Of a DNA stretch of 64,000 nucleotides, positions 6,351 to 57,955 are shown in pieces. The stretch covers positions 37,882,001 to 37,946,000 of the forward strand of contig OX597820.1 of NCBI GenBank assembly GCA_951406725.2, read 5' to 3'. The notes beneath the pieces were generated by a model, which saw only the letters and a list, made by a program, of their open reading frames with translations, did not search any database and was not told where the DNA came from. Position numbers and translations under genes: made by a program. Each line of letters begins with the position of its first letter. Position 1 is the stretch's first letter. Source of the stretch: Octopus vulgaris (lineage: Eukaryota).

Positions 6351-6954
6351 TGTATGTCGTTGCCAATAGTTTTGTATATTTTGATAAAACTTCCTCTCAT
6401 ATCATAAAGATTTTAAAGAAATGAATTTCTCTGAATAGAAAATTTTTTATCCTCTATTATGTTCGTACATAACAAATTTCTGATAGTGTACATTTGCAAT
6501 AACTTCTACCTCGCAAACATCTTTAGAAAACATTCGTTTCTATATCCACAAGAAATACTACACGAATCATTTGAATATCATACACTATTTTCACAGTTAG
6601 CGAACAATAAAAGGTTTTGAACTGGGAGCCAATCTATCAATCACTACAGAATAAATGGAAGTGTGCGCCTAATCTTAAAATTTTAATGATTGTAGGCAAC
6701 AAGCAGAGTAATGTGGTTATGTGCGGCAAACATGTCCACAGGCTAGTGGCGCAATAAAAAGGGTAACGGAATATAAGCATTACAACCAGGGACTTTAGTA
6801 TTAAAGTCAATCCTCGGTTTGTCATTACTTTTGAAGTACAGTACGTGCAGGAGGTGAGATGGGTTTGGAGAGAGCTCAAAATCTCTCGTGGAAGCGTCAT
6901 CCAACCAAAGTACAAATATATGTGAAACTACCACCGGTATCATCTCTTGTGAGA

Positions 6955-7943
6955 AGAATTGGTGACGCGCATCCTCGATGATAGTGATGCTGTTGACATC
7001 GTTTTATTGGACTTTGCCAAAGCTTTTGACTCGGTAAACCACCGCCTATTACTTGTCAAGCTTCAAGCATATAGTTTCCATCCGGATATTGTACGATGGG
7101 TTGGTGCCTTCCTCTCAGATCGCTCCTTCCAAGTCCAAGTTAATGGTTCGCGGTCCGACGTCTCCAGTGCGAGCAGTGGCGTGCCTCAAGGTTCAGTGCT
7201 TGGGCCCTTGTTGTTCTTAGTCTTCATAAATGACTTGCCCGACGACCTCACGCAACATACCCTTCTATTTGCCGACGATATCAAACTGGTCGCTCCTCGC
7301 GGTAATATAGAGGATCTTCGTCGATGCCTCCACCAAATTTGGAAGTGGTCTAACGATTGGGACCTGTGTCTGAACGTGTCAAAGTGCTGTCATCTGCCTG
7401 TCGGCTCTACTCCTGCAACTCAACTTGATTTCGAGCCGGGTCGTCTGCTGCTGGAGAGGACCGATCAGGTAAAGGACCTAGGTATCTTGGTGGATTCCTC
7501 CTTTTCGCCTTCGGCCCAGTGCGTCCATGCTGCCAACAAAGCACGCGGAATTCTGTTCTTGATTCGACGGTCATTCGGAATGCTCACGGCAGCCATATTC
7601 CTACCACTCTATGTCGCCCACAACATCATAAGCGGAAAGTGTAACCTCTCGAAAGAGCTGTTCTTCACTCCTGCTCCAGAGCGTCGGCTGCGGGGTCATT
7701 CCGAAAAGCTCTACCTGCGACGATTTCATCTTAATCGAAGGAGAGGAGCTTTCTCCGTCCGGGTTGCGGATCCGTGGAACAAGCTGCCAGACGAGATGGT
7801 GAAGATGCCGACGACCGCTTTATTTCAAGTGGCCTGAACTCTTTACATGAACACCACCCTGTACTTAACTCCATGTCCCCCTACATAGCCTTGCTATTTG
7901 CTTTTGAGTCAAATTAATTAACTAACTAACTAACTAACTAACT
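6955..7943 (+). mobile_element. 5'-truncated CR1/L2-group LINE (RT ORF 6959-7837) with internal deletion and (TAAC)n tail
   Basis: Motifs LDFAKAFDSV, SGVPQGSVLGPLLFLVFIND, LFADD, KDLGI, RLRGH...FSVRVADPWNKLP; tail ctaactaactaac 7919-7943. Confidence 0.9.
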
Positions 7944-12117: not shown

Positions 12118-14788
12118 AATGTTCAAAAATAACCCCAAGAATTTTTACAGGAAGATAGGAAAAACAGCGTTTACCGTAAGGTCTGTACCATCAAAAGAAG
12201 AAGTGCAGGGATTTTGGAATAAAAATTGAAAAGGCTCCCTGGTTTGACAGAATATCTACAGAACTGGACTCCTTAGAAGAGCAAAAGTGGGAGGGTGTCA
12301 AGGTAGAAGATATAAGATCTGCTCTCAGGAGGTCAAGCAAATGGAAGTTTCCAGGAAAGGATAAAATTCCTAACTTCTGGTTGAATGTCTTTCCAGAGAG
12401 CCATGAACTGCTAACAGAACTGTACAATGATGTTTTGCAACACCCTAGTAGGATGCATCCTTGGCTAGTTAATGGGTTAACATTCCTGCTTCCAAAAAGT
12501 GAAGAAACAAATGAACCAAAAAACTATAGACCCATAACCTGCTTAACAACTATGTATAAAACGCTAACATCTGTCCTGACGGAATATACTTGTAGTTTTT
12601 TAACAGACAGCAGCATATTCCCTAATGAACAGAAAGGATGTAAACGTGGATCCTACGGTTGTAAAGATCAACTACTCATCAATAAGATGATCTTAGAAGA
12701 TTGTCACAAACGACACAAAAACTTATCAATAGCCTGGATAGACTATAAAAAGCTTTTGATAGCCTACCACATAGCTGGATTAAGAAATGCCTGGAAATGT
12801 ATAAGATAGCACCTACTCTGCGAAACTTTTTGACTAAGTATGAGATCATGGAGAACCACACTAACTCTGAACAGTGACAATGAATCTCTAGATGCTGGTG
12901 ATGTAAAAATTTCATGTGACATTTTCCAGGGTGACTCACTGTCACCACTCCTCTTTTGTTTATCCTTAATACCTCTCTCAAAACTGCTCAATGACGCGCA
13001 GTACGGGTATAAAATGTTTGATAAAAATATAAATCATCTCATTTACATGGATGATTTAAAGCTTTTTGCAAAAAATGATCAACAACTCAAGGGCTTACTA
13101 GCGATAGTCAAACAATTCAGTGACGACATCAGAATGCAATTTGGCCTCGATAAATGTGCAAAAGCTACCTTTATCAAAGGAAAAATGACAGAAACATCTA
13201 ACGCTAACATTGACCAGCAGAATGTCATAAAAGAACTAGACCCAGCGGAGAGCTACAAGTACCTAGGGGTAATTGAAGGGGACGGAATAAGGCATTCAGA
13301 GATGAAGGAAAGGATCAGGAGAGAATGTTATCGAAGAGTGAGAGCAATACTCAAGACAGAGCTGAATGCAAGAAACAGGATCGAAGCGATCAATGCATTA
13401 GCCATACCAGTCGTGACTTACAGTTTCAATATCGTTAACTGGTCAATTACTGAAATATGTCATCTTGACAGAAAAATACGAAAACTGTTGACAATACATA
13501 TAATGCACCACCCTAAGGCAGATACAGAACGACTTTATCTGCCAAGAAAAGAGGGAGGCCGTGGTCTTTTACAACTGGCAATAACAATGAAGATTGCTAC
13601 AATTGGCCTAGACACCTACCTGAAAAAGTCTGAGGACTGGATGTTAAAACTTGTCTCAAAACATGAAAACAAGAAAGCATCATACTCAGTAACAAAACAG
13701 GCAAAGGAATATCTAAGTGAATTCCGAATACAACAAATTTCGGAATTAGAGATAGTCATACAAGAAACAAGCACAGAAAAAGCTAGGCGCATGAAAACCC
13801 GTGCCAAAACTGCGGCCTTAGATATTCTGAATAATAAATGGCAAGAAAAACCTCTCTATGGCAAATACCCAAAGAGAGCGAATAATGCAGATATTGACAA
13901 AGCCTTGACCCACCAATGGCTAATGGCCTCTAGTTTAAAATCTGAAACAGAAGGGTTTATCATAGCAGCTCAATATCAATGCCTACCAACAAGAAACTAC
14001 CAGGCCAACATATTAAAGAACGGCAGTAGCCCAACATGTCGTGTATGCCGACAACAAAATGAAACCATTGATTATGTTGTCTCCAAATGCAGTCTTCTAG
14101 CGCCTACAGAGTACCTCAACAGGCATGATAGAGCTGCACAATATATTCACTGGGTAATTTGCAAAAACCTGGATTTGCCCCATGAAAAAAACTGGTGGGA
14201 ACACAATCCACCTCCAGTGCTTGAAAATGACCACATCTCACTCCTCTGGAACTTCCCCATTCAAACTGACAGAAAGATAGATGCAAATAGGCCAGACATC
14301 ATATTGAAAGACTTCAGACAAAGAACATGCCTCCTCATTGATATGACTGTCCCAATCGATATAAACGTATTTGTCAAGACCTACCAAAAACTGAGCAAAT
14401 ATAAAGATCTTGAAATAGAAATCAGCAAAATGTGGAAGCTGAAGACTAAAACAATACCTGTTGTCATAGGTGCCCTGGGAATGATAGCGAAAGGGGCTGA
14501 TTGCTACCTAACTCAGATACCAGGAAACCCCAAAATGGCAGAAATTCAAAAGATAGTGCTCATGGGAACTGCTCATATCCTACACAAAATACTTTCTATG
14601 TAATCCCAAGGTTTAAAACTTGTTTTTTTAAATTTATTTATTAGACATTCACTAGTACAACACCAACCCCACCCCAAATATATGGCACACTAGGCATAAC
14701 AACAACGTGAACTTCCAACCTGTTGTCTCTTGAGGTCTCTGGGTGAGACTTGGAGCCAACTTGTACAGATATAAAGCAAAAGTCAAAC

Positions 14789-20725: not shown

Positions 20726-20763
<38 letters not shown>

Positions 20764-20989
20764 GAAATATTAAAATTACTAAGTCTCTCTAAAAGAGAAC
20801 AACGGCAGCGTTCCCGGAAAATATTAGTTATCGCCATACTAATATGGCATTCTTATAAAAATAAGAATAAAGCTGACCGCTTATTAGCTCCATGAGGCCA
20901 TCGCCTTAAGTTAGCTATTTGATACACAAACTGTATCCATATAACCTTTGAACAAGGGAGGTCAGTCGCTCCACACTACTTACCGGCAG

Positions 20990-21029
20990 CTACAGACGCG
21001 TTTCGGGGTATTGCCCCTTTTCAATGCAG
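20990..21029 (-). ncRNA. Minimal type I hammerhead ribozyme, U3:A8 core variant
   Basis: CUGCA-UUGAAAA-GGGG caaua CCCC-GAAA-CGCG-UC-UGUAG; stems I and II pair; stem III palindrome ACGCGU. Confidence 0.75.
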
Positions 21030-21435
21030 TGTAGCCAAACCAGTAGGTGTCGCTTCCGACAATCTCTGTTCAAAGGTTTTATTTACCTAGCTTCGGTGGA
21101 ATACATCCACTTGTTTTCAATAATAGAAATATTAAAATTACTAAGTCTCTCTAAAAGGTTATATGGATACAGTTTGTGTATCAAATAGCTAACTTAAGGC
21201 GATGGCCTCATGGAGCTAATAAGCGGTCAGCTTTATTCTTATTTTTATAAGAATGCCATATTAGTATGGCGATAACTAATATTTTCCGGGAACGCTGCCG
21301 TTGTTCTCTTTTAGAGAGACTTAGTAATTTTAATATTTCTATTATTGAAAACAAGTGGATGTATTCCACCGAAGCTAGGTAAATAAAACCTTTGAACAGA
21401 GATTGTCGGAAGCGACACCTACTGGTTTGGCTACG

Positions 21436-21475
21436 CTGCATTGAAAAGGGGCAATACCTCGAAACGCGTCTGTAG
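21436..21475 (+). ncRNA. Minimal type I hammerhead ribozyme, U3:A8 core variant (second copy)
   Basis: CUGCA-UUGAAAA-GGGG caaua CCUC-GAAA-CGCG-UC-UGUAG; the single stem II difference gives a G-U pair. Confidence 0.75.
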
Positions 21476-22371
21476 CTGCCGGCCAAGTAGTGTGGAGCGA
21501 CTGACCTCCCTTGTTCAAAGGTTATATGGATACAGTTTGTGTATCAAATAGCTAACTTAAGGCGATGGCCTCATGGAGTTAATAAGCGGTCAGCTTTATT
21601 CTTATTTTTATAAGAATGCCATATTAGTATGGCGATAACTTATATATATATATATATATATTAGTAAAATGTAAAGGATTACCACAAAATGATTACCAGT
21701 TTGCTCTCGGTTAGGTATTCAAAATATGTTATTCAACAGTTTACATATAAATCCAATTAAGTTCTTATAAGATAAGAAATTGGAGGAATATGCCGTTGGA
21801 TAATTCTGAATATATTTCCTTAACCATATATAGGTTTCCTGGAGTATAAATATTGATAATATTAAGAATAGAGATTACTCCGAAGTAGCAGTAGCATTAC
21901 CTTTAATTCTATAATTATATACTGCCTTTTAAGACCAACACTTTTTCAATTGCACCGACTAGTAATCGTTGCAATTGCAACCCTACTATTAAACGGTGCA
22001 GTCTCTTTGGGGTCTTAACTTGATAGCCGTTGGTGTGGCTGTTTAATGATTTTCTTTTATAAACTTTGCGTTGTATAATTTGGAGCTGTCCGTTAAGTCA
22101 AGCGCGTGCAATCTCTATTGGATAATCATTTTCAGTCCATCATTTCAAAACCTTGCATAGTTTAAATGCTAATTATTCATTTATACTTCGCAAATGTGAA
22201 TTTCCTCATGTGCAAGATTCTCAAAACTTGATCCTGTCTAGAATTTATTCATTACTCTTGGATGTGAAAATCCAATAAAATTCTTCTAAACATAAGTCAC
22301 ATCTATTGGTTCCAGGTCTGTATGGTTTTGCAGTACAATTTAACTTCAATTTAATCCTATAGTCCTTGATA

Positions 22372-29411: not shown

Positions 29412-30645
29412 ATATGTTTCTTTATTAGCCACACAGGGCTGCACACAGATAGAACAAATTACAAGGTAGAGCTTTTCTTTTGAAGGTTTAAGAAAGAAAA
29501 AAAAAAAAAAAAAGGAAGGGGGAGTTTCGATCAAAAGGGATCGTAAAAGGAGAGAAAGAGGACAAAAAAAGGGGGGTTTAAAAAAAAGGGGGGAGGAAAA
29601 AAATTGATCAATAGGGATCGTTATCACAGAAATGTCAATATGAAGTGTAAAGGGGAGGACAGGTGAGGTTTACCCGTGCAAAGAAAAGCCTACGGAAAAG
29701 ACCACGGTAACCTCGGTCAATGATGTCACATTTTATATTTCTTTTTTTTTTTTTTTGCAAATAAGCAACTCTCTGTTTTCGATTTCTGGGTTCATAGGAC
29801 TATGCTCAAGGTGGCTTCGTCATTCATACGTGCCATTCTTGCTACATTCACCCATCTTTTTTTAAAACATTCGCTAGACAAAACTTGCCTCTCTACTCTC
29901 ACTTTCCTTTTCAAGTGGTACTTGAAGAAGTTGATGAGAGATTGACCAGAGAGGAAAGTGTTTGTCTCCAATCCTTTCAGACGCGTCCACCAGATACATT
30001 CTTTCGCCATAGCCACAAGGATGATGAAAATAGCTCTTCCTTCCCGTTTGAAGGAAGGAGGCGTGACAATATTGACGATAGACTCAGCTGATAAACCGAC
30101 TCGTCCCACACGTGACAGCAGTTGTTCGACATAAGCCCACAGGTCGGAAATTGTTGGACACTGAACGAGTGCGTGCAGAACGGTTTCGTCGCTCTGACCG
30201 CATCTCGGGCAGGTCGGCCCCGTGTTTCTCGAGCCGTGTCTGTAGAGCTTATCCCGAACGGGTAGCGCTTCTCGGTAGCACTGCCAGGCCAGGGATCTCT
30301 GGAAGTTGTCCATGGGCCCTGGCCCGAAAGTCGTCCTGAACAGGCGGGTCAGGTACTCCTCGTCGACGTCCAGGTTCGCCCCGAGCTCGTCGTCGTACCT
30401 CCCCTCCACTAAACCCCTATAGAATGCTTTGGTTGTGTTGAAGTCACTTAAGGTCGACCCAGGACGGCAGAGTTGCTTGAGAGCAACGCGACACTCGCGG
30501 TGCCATTCGCCCTTCCTCGGCCTCTTTTTGATCCACGACTGCAGTTCGGTCATGGAGACGAGCTGCGGGAAAGCGTGCCTCACAAACGGCGACCACACCT
30601 GTTCACCGTCGTCTACATAGAGCCAGAGATGCCGCAGTCTCAGGA
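29412..30645 (-). mobile_element. 5'-truncated Tx1/L1-clade LINE (ORF2 C-terminus 29792-30598 with CCHC knuckle, plus 3' UTR)
   Basis: W..YREALPVRDKL...CPRCGQSDETVLHALVQC...W...IWWTR is a zf-RVT-like region; degenerate (GATA)n flanks. Confidence 0.85.
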
Positions 30646-31011
30646 CAGATAGATAGCCAGATTGATAGATAGATAGATAGTTAGATAGATAGATAAATAG
30701 ATATTCAGACAGATAGACAGATAAGTAGCGGGAAAAAGAGAGGAGGGGTATGCTACTTCCTATTTACTATTTAAATATTTATTTATCTATTTATTTAGTC
30801 CTTTACCATTCTATTGGAATGGGTTTAAGGATGGCGACCTCTCCCCCCCCCAAAAAAAAAGCAGTGCAGACTGGTCATGACTGAAAGCCATTTTGTTTTC
30901 TTTCTCTCTTCCCGTTTCCTTCTTTTTTCCCTCTTTCTTTCTTTTTCTCCTCTTTGAGTTATATTTAGAATACAATATATATATGCATATATATATGTGT
31001 ATATATATGTG

Positions 31012-31534: not shown

Positions 31535-31700
31535 CGCTAGCCACTACACATTCTTTATTTTCTCTCCCTGTTTCTTTCTGTTCCTTTCTGTTGAAGAGCG
31601 TAGGCTCGAAACGTTAAATACTTTTTCACTTTTAAACCAATACATCTGTTTGTTGTCTACACCACCTCTCTTCGTCTTTCTTTTTTTGTGAATTCTCCCT
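31535..31700 (+). mobile_element. PLE-type pseudo-LTR remnant with decayed minimal hammerhead (31585-31618)
   Basis: UUU-CUGuUGA-A-GAGC guag GCUC-GAAAC-GUU-AAA; one core mismatch; same layout as 56241-56273. Confidence 0.55.
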
Positions 31701-40809: not shown

Positions 40810-41165
40810 TTTGTGTGTGTTTTTGCGTCTGTGTTTGTCTCCCCATACAGGGGATGGGAGTGTTTATGCCCCCGAAACTAAGCGGTTCGGCAAAAGACTG
40901 ATAGTAAAAAATACTTGGCTTAAAAAAGAGTCTGGGGTCAATTTGTTCGTCTAAAACAACTAAAAGAATATATGTATATGTGTATGCGTGTGTGTTTGTT
41001 TGTACTCCACCCCCGGTTTATTGACAGCCAGTGTTGGTTTGTTTACGTCCCCATAGTTTACAGGTTTCGCAAAAAGTGACCACGCTTAAAAGAAAATTAC
41101 TGGAATCAATCTGTTCGATTAATTGACTAAATCGATGAAAGCAGTGTCAACCAGCATGGTCACAT
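40810..41165 (+). mobile_element. Two decayed SINE family A 3' halves in tandem
   Basis: gtgtttatgcccc..agcggttcggcaaaa and gtttacgtcccc...cagcatgg. Confidence 0.55.
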
Positions 41166-41252
<87 letters not shown>

Positions 41253-41253
<1 letters not shown>

Positions 41254-42055
41254 GGGGATTAGTGGAGGGGAGGTACGACGACGGGCTCGGGGCGAACCTG
41301 GACGTTGACGAGGAATACCTGACCCGCCTGTTCGGGACGACTTTCGGGCCAGGGCCCATGGACAACTTCCAGGGATCCCTGGCCTGGCAGTGGTACCAAG
41401 AAGCGCTACCCGTTCGGGATAAGCTCTACAGACACGGCTCGAGAAATACGGGGCCGACCTGCCCGAGATGCGGTCAGAGCGACGAAACCGTTCTGCACGC
41501 ACTCGTGCAGTGTCCATCAATTTCCGACCTGTGGGCTTATGTCGAACAACTGCTGTCACGTGTGGGACGAGTCGGTTTATCAGCTGAGTCTATCGTCAAT
41601 ATTGTCACGTCTCCTTCCTTCAAACGGGAAGGAAGAGCTATTTTCATCATCCTTGTGGCTATGGCGAAAGAATGTATCTGGTGGACGCGTCTGAAAGGAT
41701 TGGAGACAAACACTTTCCTCTCTGTTCAATCTCTCATCAACTTCTTCAAGTACCACTTGAAAAGGAAAGTGAGAGTAGAGAGGCAAGTTTTGTCTAGCGA
41801 ATGTTTTAAAAAAAGATGGGTGAATGTAGCAAGGATGGCAAGTATGAATGACGAAGCCACCTTGAGCATAATCCTATGAACCCAGAAATTGAAAACAGAG
41901 GGTTACCCACTTGCAAACAAATGTGGTAACATGTAACAATATTGACCGAGGTTACCGTGGTCTTTTTCGTAGGCTTTTCTTCCCACGGATAAACCTTATC
42001 TGCTTCCCCCTTTATACCGTACATCATGACACTGTGATACACGATCCCTATTGAT
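41253..42055 (+). mobile_element. 5'-truncated Tx1/L1-clade LINE (ORF 41262-41879) inside (TATC)n
   Basis: Protein nearly identical to 29792-30598; (ATCT)n upstream and shortly downstream. Confidence 0.88.
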
Positions 42056-43324: not shown

Positions 43325-43669
43325 GGTACACATATGATAGTAACTTCCTAGATGCACCTACATGCAAATCAAAACAGCAGTATGCTCACGATTAGAATCA
43401 CTTCAATCATCAGCTTTCTCGATCAGTATACTGATCTGGGGTTAAACAACCTCATCATTACTAACAGCTGCAGCAACAACAACGCCAAGACAACAACAGC
43501 AGTAGCAACAGCAGTAACAGAAGTGGTACCACCACTACCAACTATCAACAACAACAGCAACAAAAGCAACTGCTAAAAAATTTCGGTATACATTACCAAG
43601 TTTCTGAAACTAATATTTCTGTAGCAGTTACTGAGATGATAATTGCAATCACCATACGTTACACTCACA

Positions 43670-44003
43670 GGCGCATAGCTTAGTGGCTAGAGCGTCGAGC
43701 TTACGATCGTGAGGTTGTGAGCTCGAGTCCCAGACCGGGCTGCGTGTTGTGTTCTTGAGCAAGACACTTTATTTCACGTTGCTCCAGTTCACTCAGCTGT
43801 AGAAATGAGTTGAGATGTCAGTGGTGCCAAGCTGTATCGGCCTTTGCCTTTCACTTGGATAACACTGGTGGCGAGGAGAGGGGAGGCTGGTATGCATGGG
43901 CGACTGCTGGTCTTCTATAAACAACCTTGCCCGGATTTGTACATTGGGAGGGTAACTTTCTAGGTGCAATCCCACGGTCTGTGTCGTGACCGAAGTGGGT
44001 CTC
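43670..44003 (+). mobile_element. tRNA-derived SINE family B
   Basis: ggcgcatagcttagtggctagagcg (A box), gagctcgagtccc (B box), gtgttcttgagcaagacactt; homologous to 55678-55992. Confidence 0.85.
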
Positions 44004-46313: not shown

Positions 46314-47956
46314 CTTTCGCTCGGTTCTCATTCTCCTTATCTGCGCCAATTCGAATTTAGCAAGCTGCATGCTCTTCCTATCCATGCTCAACCGACCCAT
46401 CTGTCTCAGCTTCTCGTCTTTCGCCCAATAACTGAAACTTTCTGAAACGCTGCCTCTGCTTACATTATTTCCGAAACAGTGAACCGCAGACCTTCAATAT
46501 GAATATCAATTCTCCTATCCCACTTGCCTACATGAGTTTCCAATGTTCATAGCCACTGATGCATCCTCTAATTAATTTTAAAAAAAGAAGGAAAAAAAAA
46601 GCAAAGCAAAGTGAATCATTGAGTGCAGTGGAGATTGTCACGTGTCAACAGTGGTTTTGGTAAGGATGCATTACTTTAGAGATAAGATACATATATCGTT
46701 GATTTTTCGCCCAGTTGACAGTTAATTCAGTCGATCGTTCACTCCGTTTGAGAGCCACTTTGGTCAGTTTATCTTTCGGCAAGGTGACCCTTCAAATGGA
46801 GTTTGTGTTGATAGATTAAAATGAGGACAAGTCTTTCTGACAAACTCATTGATGTCGCTAGATATACAGCTACTTCACTCAAGAACCAGACACGTAACAG
46901 CTTTATCCACAATAAAATATCGCACACACTTACACACACACGCACACACGCACGCAGATGTTTATACACAACCATTCACAATTACATATATACGTATACA
47001 CTCGCAGACATACACACATACGCTTATAAACAACCATTCACACTTACACACATACACATATAATCCCACATTCACAAGATGTTCCACCATACACTCGCAC
47101 ATTCACAAACGTTGATTTGAAGGCTACATATACTTGACTCCTTCAAAGATAGCCAATCATTTTATACATATAGCAATACATTACCAAGTGAACTTTTAAA
47201 TTTCCGTTAAATGGGAGGGTCTCGATTCATTTTTCTCTCTTTCTTTCTATGTCTTTCTATCTTCAAATAATTGAAATATCATATGTCATCATATCGTCCC
47301 TTGACAGAAATCAGTGGAAAGTAAGACGAAGGAGAAAGTTTCGCAGTTTCGTAGTTTTGAAAAGAATCGGTGAAGTTTGTTCTACCTACTCAGTGAAGGG
47401 AATTCTTTTAGACAAAAACAAAGTAAAACGAAAACAAAACAAAAAAATCCCCCCAAAAAACAAAAAAACCCCACAAAAATCCAACAGTAGACAAGAAATA
47501 AAATTAAATACCATTGCTGATTGCATGGCGTAAGAAGTGACATCTAAATCGATATATTAATCAATAATGAAAGTGCTTGTGTTTATTGAATGAAGAATGC
47601 TACTTTCGTCTGACGTGACACAAACATAGTTTGCTAATATTGATTGATTAGATGCTTTGGCTAGACAGAAGCCGTCGATCGAATTTAAATGAAAGGGAAG
47701 AGGTAAATTATAATTGTGTGGCGTTCATGCCTCTTCCCTAGAAAGTAGTGCCATATATTGGCTTGAATTAAAATAAAAAAAAAACACACCGTTCAAAGCT
47801 TACATTTATATTCTAGTGTAACTAACAACAACAAAGCAATCACATGATTAAAATTAGGACTAGTAAAACGAAGCTGGTGCTAGGAGATATGACAACAATG
47901 TTGTTGTTGATGATGATGATATAATGATAAGCGTGATGATAATGATGATGATGATG

Positions 47957-48016
<60 letters not shown>

Positions 48017-48017
<1 letters not shown>

Positions 48018-49428
48018 GACACAACACACAAATGAAAGAGAAAATAAAAAAAGAATACTATAGACGAGTTAGATCAATACTAAACACAGAGCTCAATGCT
48101 AAAAACAAGATAATAGGTATCAACACTTTAGCTGTCCCAGTTATAAGTTACAGCTACAATATCCTTAACTGGACACGAAATGAACTGACCAAAATAGATA
48201 GGAAAACAAGAAAAATAATGACAGGATCTAGGATGCATCACCCAAAATCTGACATAGAAAGACTATATATACAACGTATAGAAGGTGGTAGAGGCCTTAT
48301 ACAGCTGGAAAACTACTATAAAATAACCACCATAGGACTGCAAAAATATCTACTTCAGAAGGAAGGAAAACTGATCCAGATAGCGGCAAAACACGAGCAA
48401 AACAAAAAAACTGTTCTCAGTATTTAAGGAAGCTGACAAATACAAACAAGAAATCATACCACCTAATAAACATGAAGAAGAAGAAGAAGATGGAGAAACA
48501 ACAAAAGCTATAAAACAAATGAAATCCAAACTAAAAATAGAACAGCAACGAACCATGATAAAACGATGGCAAGAAAAGCCCCTTCATGGTAAATACTGAA
48601 CTAAATTAAACGCAAAAGAAATAGACAAAGAAAAATCCCAGCAATGGTTGAGAAGCTCAGGACTCAAAGCAGAAACAGAGGGATTTTTAATTGCAGCACA
48701 AGACCAAAGCCTCCCCACCAGAAATTACCAAAAACATGTAATGAAAAGAAATATTACAAGTAACTGCAGAATATGTGATGGACAAGAAACAATAAATCAT
48801 ATTATCTCTAGCTGCCCAGTCCTGGCTAAGAAGGAATATATTCACAGACATGACAGAGTTGGAACCTACATACATTGGAAGCTATGCCAACATTATGGAA
48901 TAACAACAGAAAAAAGATGGTATAGGCACACACCAGAAAAAGGTCACAAAAAACGAGAAAGCAACCATACTCTGGGATATGCCGATACACACAGATAGAG
49001 AAATTAAAGCCAACAGACCAGATATAGTTGTCAGAGACCATGAAGAAAAAAATGCTTTCTAATTGATGTATCAATACCGGCTGATGACAACGTGTCTCTA
49101 AAAGAAATGGAGAAACTCTCAAAATACAAAGACCTGGAAATAGAGGTAACTAGAATGTGGAATCTGAAAACAGAAACAATTCCTATCATAGTAGGTGCAT
49201 TAGGTATGATAAAAAAATATTCAGACAAATACATAACAAAAACACCAGGACTTACAAACACATATAACATACAGAAAATTGCACTACTAGGCACTGCACA
49301 CATCCTACGCAGAACACTTTCCATACAATAACCATCAGAGCATCACAACAAATCACAGCACATACCCAAGGCACACAGAGCTGCGCTCGGTAGTGAAGTG
49401 AAAGCACGCTATAAAAATAAAACTACTG
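48017..49428 (+). mobile_element. 5'-truncated Dong/R4-clade LINE, second subfamily, in (TAA)n
   Basis: HHPKSDIERLY...GGRGL, GLKAETEG.LIAAQDQ, CRIC...HIISSC, RHD, KLSKYKDL; frameshifts and stops; (TAA)n on both sides. Confidence 0.92.
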
Positions 49429-54460: not shown

Positions 54461-54886
54461 TAAATAAATGTATATACATATACATATATATACACGCACA
54501 TCAACATATACACATATACATACACAACCACATATATCATATAATAAATACATATATAAATGTCTATATTCATACTACAATACAAAATAGAGGTAAATAT
54601 TAAGTTAAATCTAAATAATTAATCTATTAATCTATACTTCTATATTAAATAAAATAGATTAAATAAACAACTAAATAAATCTATTTCAAATATAAAGAGA
54701 TTACATACAAATTATAATTTAACGAAGTTATAACAGAAATATAACAAAATATATAAAATAAATAAAATTGTAACTTAACAGACTCTATATTCAATAAACC
54801 ATTAAATATTTATTAAAAATATATTTAGTAATAAAATATTTAGTAATAAAATATTTTGTGACCAAATATAGTTATATGTGTGAATG

Positions 54887-55038: not shown

Positions 55039-55119
55039 CATACATATACATATACATATATATATATATATATATATACATTCACACATATAACTATATT
55101 TTTGGTCACAAAATATTTT
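54848..55119. repeat. Palindrome of about 270 bp centred on a microsatellite
   Basis: aaaatattttgtgaccaaatatagttatatgtgtgaatgta ... tacattcacacatataactatatttttggtcacaaaatatttt; (TATATG)n on the left is mirrored by (CATATA)n on the right. Confidence 0.85.
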
Positions 55120-55240: not shown

Positions 55241-55676
55241 ACGTATTTAAGCGAACTTTAGAATAGTTCAAATACGTTTTTGACATATTTTAACTTCTAA
55301 GGATATGTTCACAGCAGTTACTGTAACTTCTAAAAGCAAATTGACAGCAACTATCAGACGCGTTTCTGGCTCTTTATCGTTATCAATGGGAAAAACCAAT
55401 GTGAGATAACTCTGGGCAGATTTTAAAGAAAATACAATCAACAACATTGAGTGAGTTGTGCTAAGAAATTCAGTAGTATCAGCGCCAGGCAGTGTTTACG
55501 TATTTCCCATTGATAACGGATAAAGAGCTAGAGGCTTTTCATACCTTTTACCATCATACAAAATTCTTTAATCCACGGTAACTGCAGAGAATTTGCCTTC
55601 AGAAGGTGAAACATACCACAATCATATTTTAACTAACCTAAAGTTCGCTAATGCCTAAACACTGCTTGGCGCTGAC
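55241..55676. mobile_element. Second, older retrozyme-like locus: unit of about 257 nt plus an inverted, permuted partial copy
   Basis: acgtattt at 55241 and 55498 delimits the minus-strand unit; plus arm 55503-55676 runs across the unit junction; minus-strand motif CA-UUGAUAA...GAAACGCGUC-UG at about 55347-55390. Confidence 0.65.
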
Positions 55677-55677
55677 A

Positions 55678-55992
55678 GGCGCATGGCTCAGAGGTTAGAG
55701 CGAAGGCTCACAATTATGAGGTAGTGGATTCGAATCCCTGACCGGGCCGTGTGTTGTGTTCCTGAGCAAGACATTTTATTTCACGTTGCTCAGGTTCACT
55801 CAGGTGTAGAAAAGAGTTGCGACGTCACTGTTGCCAAGCTGTATCGGCTTCTACCTTTCCCTTGTATAACATCGGTGGCGTGGAGAGGGGAGGCTGGTAT
55901 GCATGGCGACTGTTTGTCTTCCATAAACAATCTTGCCCGGACTTGTGCATCGGAGGGAAACTTTCTAGGTTTATGACCGAAGTGGGGTATCT
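55678..55992 (+). mobile_element. tRNA-derived SINE family B
   Basis: ggcgcatggctcagaggttagagc...ggattcgaatccc; collinear with 43670-44003. Confidence 0.85.
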
Positions 55993-56134: not shown

Positions 56135-57955
56135 AAAGTTAATCCAAACATGAAAACACAAAGAGAAAACTCAACAATGTGTGGGCGTGGAACAAGTACA
56201 GTGTTATTGGACGCTCAGGAAAGGAAACAAAGAAGGAAAATTTAACGATTCGAGCGGAGCTCTTCCTCACAAACATAGAAAGAGGAAAGACCCAAGGGAG
56301 GGAAGACGGAGGAAAAAATCGCCAACGATACACACACGGGTACATATTGAATGACCGAAAAAGTTCTTTCAAAGACAGGAGATTGCAAGAGAAGGAGGTA
56401 TGTGTGTGTTTGTGTGTGTTTGTGTGCGTGTAATGATAGCACGTGTGTATGATTGTGGCTGTTAATCTATGTGTGGTTGGGTTTAGTATCGTTTAAGGTC
56501 ATAGGAGTGGCTCCTGTTGTGTCTCTACCTACACATGTGCAGAGAAGAATGGTCAGTAGAAGGTACTGGAAGCTTGAAGTATGTGTGTGTGCTTTGTTTG
56601 CAGTGTGTGTGTGAGTGTATGCATGTATGTGTGTGTTCGTGTATGTGTAGGGGTTGTGTGTGTGGGGAATAACTACTTTACTTTATGTATGTGTGCGTGT
56701 GTGCTTGTATGTGCGTATGTGTGTATACATATATATGTATAATTGTGTGCGTGTATGTATGAGTGTGTGATGTGTGTATGGGAGGTATGTGTGGGTTCAT
56801 TTGCGGGTGCGTGTGTGTGTATGTGCGTGCGTGTCGTATGTGCATGTAGTTGTGTGTGCGTGCATGTATTCGTGTGTATGTGTGTGCGTGTGTGCGTATG
56901 TGGGTGTGTATAGGTGTATGTGTGGGGCTGTGAGTGTTAGGTATGTGTATCTTCGTGTGTGTGCATGTTTGTGCGTGTGTGTGTGTGTGTCTATATGTAT
57001 ATGCGTATGTGTATGTGTGTGTGCGTATATGCATGTATTGAGTGTGTATGTATATGTATAGGTCGGTATGTGAATTTGTGTATGCGTGTGTGCGTGGGGG
57101 TTTGTGGGTTTTGTGTAGGCGTAATGTGCGTATCTGCGTGTATGTACGTGCGTGTGCTTGTGTGTGTGTGTGCTTACGTGCATGTGTGCGTTTCTGTATG
57201 TGTATTGTGTGTTGGAGGTATACGTGCGAACCTGTGCTAGTGTGTGTGTATGTACGTGTGTATATGTGTGTGTGCGTGTATTATGTGCATATGTGTGTGC
57301 GTGTGTATATATGTGTGTGTATGTGCGTGAGTGTGTATATGTGTGTGTGAACGTGGAGATATGTGTCGGGTTATGTGTGCATTTTGTTGTGTGTACGCGC
57401 GTGTGCTTGAGCATGTGTGTGTATGTGGTTGTGTGTACGTTTATATGTGTGTTTGTCTAAAGGTATGTGTGTTTGTGTGTGCGTGGGATTGTGTGGGATA
57501 GGTATCCGTGCATTCCTGTGCGTGTGTATGTGTGTGTGTACGTGTGTGTGTGTACGTGTGTGTGTGTATGTGTATGTATGCGTGTGTGTATGTGTGTGTG
57601 TGGAAGTATGTGCGTGTATATGTGCATGTATGTATGTTGTATGTGTGTGGTGTGTGAGAGGTATATATGCGTTCGTGGATACGTAAGTATGCGTGTGTAT
57701 GCGTGCGTGTGTATAGAAATAAAAACAATGATTTATAAAAACAATAAATTATAAACAATAAAAATCAAAAAAATTATAAAACAATAAAATATAAAAAGAT
57801 TGAAAGGAGATAAGGAAGTCAATGCAATATAAATGGCGCAATTACAAGTAAGAAAATGAAAAATGAGAAAAGAAATCAAGTTGCTTGTTGCGGGAGGTGT
57901 AGAGGCAGTCACTAGGAGGAGGGGGTTATGTTAAGTCCATGGGGATAGTAATAAA
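56135..57955 (-). mobile_element. Penelope-like element 3' end: last codons, 1.3-kb scrambled CA-rich tract, pseudo-LTR with decayed HHR
   Basis: Minus strand YPHGLNITPSS* near 57910-57950 (P.GLN is the PLE endonuclease terminal motif); HHR-like UUU-gUGAGGA-A-GAGC ucc GCUC-GAAuC-GUU-AAA at 56241-56273. Confidence 0.55.

Follow-up and report, generated by a model that had tools for sequence, protein, structure and literature searches.

The window analysed here, a 64-kb stretch of AT-rich DNA from Octopus vulgaris, contains abundant microsatellites and retroelement debris. Within it we have identified two copies of a 257-nt unit that lie head-to-head, with their 3′ ends pointing outward. The minus arm (55241–55505, minus strand) carries the full unit (55241–55497) together with a terminal redundancy of 8 nt, which amounts to 1.03 units, and the plus arm (55500–55675, plus strand) is an inverted, 5′-truncated copy that starts just before the ribozyme core and then continues over the unit junction. 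The arms meet with their 5′ ends at the inversion centre (55500–55505), in an overlap of 6 nt that contains one mismatch. The unit has a GC content of 35% and its longest ATG frame reaches 59 codons when four laps of a circle are read; neither a 100-codon frame nor an RT-GIY-YIG ORF was found overlapping the locus. A second copy of the unit was not detected in the 64-kb window, nor was a complete tandem dimer detected at the locus itself. The locus is filed here as a decayed non-autonomous insertion of the Penelope-like element (PLE) type, and not as an autonomous PLE, since it has no ORF.

Alignment of the plus arm (55500–55677) to a doubled minus-arm unit gave 130 matching columns out of 185 (76% ungapped identity), with a score of 161 compared to 63 for the best of 1000 shuffles. 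The plus arm reaches the unit end at 55638–55649 and passes into the unit start at 55657–55675, and this tail-to-head match alone was reached in 0 of 5000 shuffles. The first-pass annotation, which had described a minus-strand unit of about 257 nt bounded by an 8-mer and an inverted plus arm that begins mid-unit and reads through the unit end into its start, was right on both points. Since the minus arm is composed of the unit plus 8 nt and the plus arm crosses the junction, both the end-to-start and the start-to-end adjacencies are present. The unit junction and tail of the plus arm occupy 55650–55675, where 7 nt resembling the 8-mer are followed by 19 nt of unit start (18/19 identical). This tail extends at least 19 nt past the 3′ end of the minus arm, is found on one side only, and is ended by a SINE-like repeat. 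The excess over one unit is thus 8 nt in the minus arm and about 26 nt in the plus arm.

The 8-mer, ACGTATTT, is located at 55241 and 55498, spaced 257 nt apart, and a third copy, in inverted orientation, lies within the unit at 55270. The 8-mer and this inverted copy close a hairpin of 13 bp with a 4-nt bulge at the 3′ end of the minus arm (55241–55277, minus strand), whose folding energy of -8.5 kcal/mol was reached by 7 of 1000 shuffles of a region picked post hoc. At the equivalent place, the plus-arm junction matches the 8-mer at 5 of 7 positions. Because of this equivalent and of the hairpin closure, the 8-mer is likelier to be unit sequence than a target duplication, and it probably belongs to the unit junction instead of marking a boundary.

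On its left end the locus borders a CA-rich tract. On its right, the plus-arm tail is adjoined by the SINE-like dispersed repeat (55676–55986, plus strand), which is separate from the 257-nt unit, shares 84% identity with 43664–43965 and lacks 18 nt near its 3′ end; the SINE label is drawn from size and dispersal, and ARAGORN found 0 tRNA genes. Since this repeat covers the right end, a target-site duplication of the locus cannot be read. Upstream of the locus, a 35-nt inverted repeat (94%) at 54848–54880 and 55085–55119 surrounds a 200-nt (TA)n-rich array and may represent a fold-back element or an assembly feature. Elsewhere in the window, LINE-type reverse-transcriptase fragments are found at 6953–7837, 12180–14603 and 29792–30763, and the stretches 41139–41879 and 47867–48998 resemble them by eye. 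A Pfam scan of five window frames assigned RT-related families (RVT_1 or zf-RVT) to the four LINE-type frames, and no Pfam family matched the PLE-like frame. The latter is a broken Penelope-like ORF (18544 to about 19300, plus strand). It is 42–45% identical to three unnamed proteins, and in two of these a weak GIY-YIG match falls short of the Pfam cut-off. Judged by eye, the motifs of this ORF are in line with the Hydra-clade alignment of the PMC8557442 supplement, and a CUGAUGA core remnant lies after it at about 19360.

The minus strand carries at 55388–55355 the motif CA-UUGAUAA-(13 nt)-GAAA-CGCG-UC-UG. It is composed of a hammerhead 5′ core in its U3:A8 variant (UUGAUAA, 55380–55386), a stem II/loop II region (55367–55379) that has no helix beside GAAA and at most 1 bp, and a segment (55355–55366) with GAAA, a palindromic CGCG stem/loop III, the UC cleavage site and the UG of stem I. 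The position of the motif predicts a cut in the minus arm after 55357, and stem I next to the core is limited to 2 bp, formed by UG with CA at 55388–55387. A second UUGAUAA core is present in the plus arm (55510–55516, plus strand), followed by neither GAAA nor stem III. A strict pattern for the motif, defined only after another locus with a 362-nt unit had been seen, has 3 occurrences in the window, one of them at the 257-nt locus and two at the 362-nt locus, against none in 200 shuffled windows, which bears out the U3:A8 motif reported earlier for this place; a looser core pattern occurs 0.23 times per shuffled window. A covariance model built from the two ribozymes of the 362-nt locus places the 257-nt motif at the top of four non-self matches, with 17.2 bits and a rough E of about 0.04, although 2 of its 4 stem II pairs are broken. 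The strict pattern was also scanned against prokaryotic genomes, giving 6 matches where about 10 were expected, and these six have no stems and no homology beyond the motif. In Rfam, the whole window gave 0 matches at the gathering threshold, and at E values up to 10 no hammerhead family was matched at either locus, only hairpin or snoRNA families by chance.

Stem II beside GAAA is unpairable in both arms, with a maximum of 1 bp in the minus arm and 2 bp in the plus arm. When the two arms are combined by eye, 3 of 4 stem II pairs can be formed, with one mismatch and an extra A before GAAA. The first 32 columns of the arm alignment, which take in the stretch between the cores, agree at 29 and belong to the best-kept parts of the arms. 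For this reason, either the donor probably already had an unpairable stem II, or a later homogenisation made the arms alike. The helix that the first-pass annotation called decayed cannot pair, and its restoration by a consensus is disfavoured by this agreement, which comes from two copies only. Holding the core open would cost 14.7 kcal/mol here compared to 6.5 at the 362-nt locus, and the circular fold of the 257-nt unit is weakly better than its shuffles (z -1.6, 100 shuffles), a value that decay would lower. It is predicted that neither arm works as a ribozyme and that today the copy is inert; the ribozyme of the donor RNA may already have been crippled. As helix II and a complete ribozyme in each unit were both found wanting, the locus is not filed as a hammerhead ribozyme or an active retrozyme.

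The two arms differ by 24%, and do so patchily (identity variance p 0.006 by shuffling and 0.002 by simulation). The GAAACGCGUC half of the motif is found in the minus arm only; in the plus arm the place of the ribozyme 3′ half is taken by a 43-nt block (55532–55574, plus strand) that is at random level when compared with the minus arm (1845/5000 shuffles). A fold-back origin of this block is unsupported (855/5000 shuffles). Outside it, the arms are alike at 29/31 and 79/103 positions (77–94%), and because this range brackets the 84% between the two SINE copies, the ages of the arms and of the SINE are compatible. Arms made in a single event should begin identical and decay evenly, so that a one-event origin needs an added step; a local replacement, a conversion between arms or the presence of two donor subfamilies would suffice.

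The 362-nt locus (20758–21645) lies inside (TA)n and consists of head-to-head arms that measure 1.10 and 1.36 units; its U3:A8 hammerheads, at 21024–20995 (minus strand) and 21441–21470 (plus strand), are pairable. Its architecture is like that of the 257-nt locus, and CAUUGANAA and GAAACGCGUCUG are common to both units; the overlap of the arms at the centre is 4 nt (21154–21157) at the former and 6 nt at the latter. When the ribozymes are masked, the score between both units is reached by 660/1000 and 586/1000 shuffles. Past the cut site, a marginal similarity of about 10 nt remains (64/2000 shuffles), and upstream of the core there is none (1503/2000 shuffles). The arms of the 362-nt locus are identical at 486 of 492 positions compared to 76% ungapped at the 257-nt locus, from which the 257-nt unit looks the older of the two. 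In this respect, three earlier statements hold: that the two loci share a head-to-head, junction-spanning architecture, that their units have no similarity outside the ribozyme, and, as far as divergence tells, that the 257-nt unit is older. The circle of the 362-nt unit folds well (z -6.0) with stems I and II pairable, in contrast to the z of -1.6 given above.

Some further observations concern hammerhead-like sequences in the window. The outward 3′ ends of the 362-nt locus differ by 68 nt, which exceeds the published tail of 30–40 bp, and its pairable U3:A8 hammerheads have no match in Rfam even at an E of 10. A decayed minimal hammerhead-like motif (about 56240–56275, minus strand), recognised by eye only, lies about 570 nt downstream of the 257-nt locus within a repeat that begins at a (TA)n array. 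Another minimal hammerhead-like motif (31588–31615, plus strand) has a C3:G8 core in which A6 is changed to U, its stem II measures 4 bp and its stem I 3 bp, and sequence comparison gave no relation between it and either U3:A8 unit.

A covariant U3–A8 hammerhead core was reported in the PLEs of Schistosoma mansoni, with about 1,300 matches, and the hammerhead pairs of PLEs lie on opposite strands 100–700 bp apart (PMC4209133). The cores UUGAUAA and UUGAAAA both appear in Fig. S3 of that paper, where the S. mansoni Cercyon families 3 and 4 have 5′ cores identical to those of the 257-nt unit (UUGAUAA) and the 362-nt unit (UUGAAAA); the family 3 heptamer is that of the minus arm described here. 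These PLE hammerheads resemble the 257-nt motif in their short palindromic helix III and U-rich 5′ flank, in a helix I that goes down to 2 bp in some species, and in their occurrence as opposite-strand pairs, mainly in ORF-less remnants (PMC4209133). They differ from it in their paired helix II, with G10.1–C11.1 beside GAAA, which is absent in the 257-nt motif, and the CGCG helix III of the latter exceeds that of the schistosome U3–A8 examples by 2 nt (PMC4209133). The consulted portion of Fig. S3 of PMC4209133 includes no cephalopods.

Animal non-LTR retrozymes are 150–450-nt repeats that are expressed as circles (PMC7229834). They have been tied to pLTRs and argued to be non-autonomous PLE derivatives, and cleavage was found for 1 of the 9 retrozyme elements tested (10.64898/2026.07.22.740005). 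Like the 257-nt unit, they are non-coding and 150–450 nt in size, with a GC content below 50% and one type I hammerhead per unit, and both have in common the end-to-start adjacency, which would imply a template in tandem or circular form, and a presumed dependence on PLE proteins (PMC7229834; 10.64898/2026.07.22.740005). Unlike them, the 257-nt locus has a broken ribozyme of the U3:A8 rather than the canonical type, its copies are head-to-head, and it lacks a complete tandem dimer. Cephalopods are not mentioned for retrozymes in the consulted parts of PMC7229834, the paper on the giant squid genome counts 235 hammerhead-1 loci and, in the passages concerned, does not analyse them (PMC6962438), and our literature searches brought up nothing on retrozymes or U3:A8 hammerheads of cephalopods.

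Insertions of PLEs leave a footprint where an inverted 5′-truncated copy lies by the element's 5′ end, head-to-head and with an overlap at the junction (PMC3846280; PMC8557442), which measures 15 bp in Pen2a_Av (PMC3846280). An optional tail of 30–40 bp at one end, microsatellite targets with a (TA)n bias and target duplications of 8–10 bp were reported as well, and octopus Naiad and Hydra PLEs are listed (PMC3846280; PMC8557442). The tail corresponds to the stretch between two RT start sites, with both strands being cut and extended, and hammerhead mutants still insert in vitro, cleavage not being required (PMC11167929). The 257-nt locus shares with the insertions of EN+ PLEs (Pen2a_Av, PMC3846280 and PMC8557442; PAc, PMC11167929) the head-to-head arrangement, the 5′-truncated inverted copy and the overlap, and also the one-sided extension, a putative simple-sequence target and 3′ ends that lie about 100–240 nt past the ribozyme. 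It differs from EN+ PLEs in having no RT-GIY-YIG ORF and in that, from the unit start, the ribozyme is reached again within about 110 nt. In a check for pLTR homology, three short motifs were not found in the part of the PMC8557442 supplement that was searched.

We read the 257-nt locus, with a probability of roughly 0.7, as the fossil of a non-autonomous, retrozyme-like PLE derivative that was inserted head-to-head long ago and later abutted by a SINE. The insertion was likely the work of a PLE reverse transcriptase/endonuclease that used in trans a small RNA of tandem or circular form. This reading is based on the junction read-through together with the arm score, on the like geometry of the 362-nt locus, where both arms are clearly longer than one unit, and on the agreement with the published PLE footprint, U3–A8 cores and opposite-strand pairs. 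Moreover, unit size and GC content fit non-LTR retrozymes (PMC7229834), the covariance model of the 362-nt locus ranks the motif first, and the window holds a broken PLE-type ORF. What counts against it is the uneven 24% divergence of the arms, their shared unpairable stem II, the 14.7 kcal/mol for opening the core and the circular z of -1.6, as well as the lack of an Rfam hammerhead, here as at the 362-nt locus, and of a second copy in the 64 kb. A crippled donor ribozyme would be no bar to insertion, since hammerhead mutants still insert (PMC11167929).

Published PLE biology, applied to the anatomy observed at the locus, suggests every step of the following pathway. The ORF-less unit would be transcribed as a multimer or a circle, and a PLE protein, in trans, would nick both strands at a simple-sequence target. 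Synthesis of cDNA would then start at two sites separated by at least 19 nt, one of them 116 nt and the other at least 135 nt beyond the cut, and these separated starts would give rise to the tail. The two cDNAs would be joined head-to-head at a short microhomology. Later the arms would have decayed, with the plus arm losing the 3′ half of its ribozyme, and the SINE would have landed at the plus-arm end.

As for the source of such a protein, the broken PLE-type ORF indicates that PLE proteins existed in the host lineage. No homology was found between the 257-nt unit and the 3′ and 5′ flanks of this PLE fossil, which counts against the insertion reading, and no autonomous partner for the unit was found in the window. 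A search for partners among these flanks and the two other hammerhead-like repeats comprised 16 comparisons, the lowest at 12/200, none of which was significant.

Perhaps the uneven divergence of the arms reflects two insertions of different age, where a younger minus monomer landed inside an older plus relative and an 8-bp target was duplicated. The uneven divergence would then be explained without an extra step, motif and hairpin are kept by the minus arm and not by the plus arm, and PLEs do tend to land beside earlier copies (PMC6765202). The element would still be of the PLE type, with an accidental head-to-head shape; we consider this origin unlikely. The perfect ACGTATTT on both sides is in line with the target duplications of 8–10 bp reported for PLEs (PMC3846280), yet the plus arm has a 5/7 equivalent of it at its junction, and the hairpin closed by the 8-mer is internal to the unit. 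In addition, the older copy should continue to the left of 55241, where the match of the flank is at chance level (703/2000 shuffles and 367/894 real segments). By eye, the left flank had seemed a plausible candidate for the first half that an older plus-strand copy would lack here, and it was rejected as non-significant under four scoring schemes.

Just as improbable is a scenario in which a single decayed pLTR-like copy was rearranged locally, a fold-back giving the inverted arm and a slip between the two 8-mers the apparent permutation; a circle, a tandem or a family would then be unnecessary. Judging from the sequence, a pre-existing direct repeat of 8 nt with a template switch would give exactly such a junction, and the excess over one unit is small enough (8 nt and about 26 nt) for a slip to mimic junction spanning; besides, a single locus is seen in the window. 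However, two switches would be needed in one event, the large overlaps of the like-designed 362-nt locus would be left unexplained, and both geometry and tail length match the PLE footprint (PMC8557442; PMC3846280).

It was also considered that the hammerhead of the donor RNA was rewired and functional, where 55396–55389 pairs with 55374–55367 in an 8-bp helix that replaces stem II. This helix ends exactly before GAAA, and a distal 6-bp stem I would lie beyond a 17-nt bulge. Only 38 of 5000 shuffles reach an 8-bp helix, much of it recurs in the unconstrained fold, the region is well conserved between the arms, and non-circular hammerhead permutations occur naturally (PMC10085705). On the other hand, the helix was found post hoc and 2 of its 8 pairs are G–U; in the free fold its loop buries the 5′ core, the distal stem I is at chance level (490/5000), and the linker between helix and stem I has only 2 nt. 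There is neither covariation nor a second sequence, and the 3′ core is gone from the plus arm. We regard such a ribozyme as very improbable. A non-circularly permuted hammerhead of the types SGC, CSG or GCS was rejected, as the block order is that of a plain type I and only a swap of the stem II strand is possible. It would be bolder to propose several unrelated U3:A8 retrozyme families, inserted head-to-head by PLE proteins, the 257-nt one having a rewired stem II made with an upstream strand from the stem-I bulge in place of the strand that follows A9, and we give this very little credence. If true, the rewired stem II would add to the natural hammerheads a new topology, and this in the genome of an animal.

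Finally, an assembly artefact or a chance motif is hardly credible: the locus does lie among microsatellites, with the short inverted repeat around a (TA)n array just upstream, and the strict motif does arise by chance in very large data (the 6 prokaryotic matches for about 10 expected), but arms that are 24% apart cannot be a mis-assembled duplicate, and none of 200 shuffled windows contains the motif, which comes with an architecture common to the 362-nt locus.

The first-pass annotation had taken the two loci to suggest a class of U3:A8 small-RNA elements. A new class is not supported, because both the signature and the architecture have already been published for PLEs (PMC4209133; PMC8557442; PMC3846280). 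As best read, the 257-nt locus is one more decayed PLE-type insertion and matters little by itself; only the rewired ribozyme would surprise a specialist, and it is very doubtful. The 362-nt locus, young and intact, would be the better experimental target. Considered beside it, the 257-nt locus has the modest value of a second example of a small ORF-less hammerhead unit with the full PLE footprint, and this footprint bears on the still indirect claim that PLE proteins move animal retrozymes.
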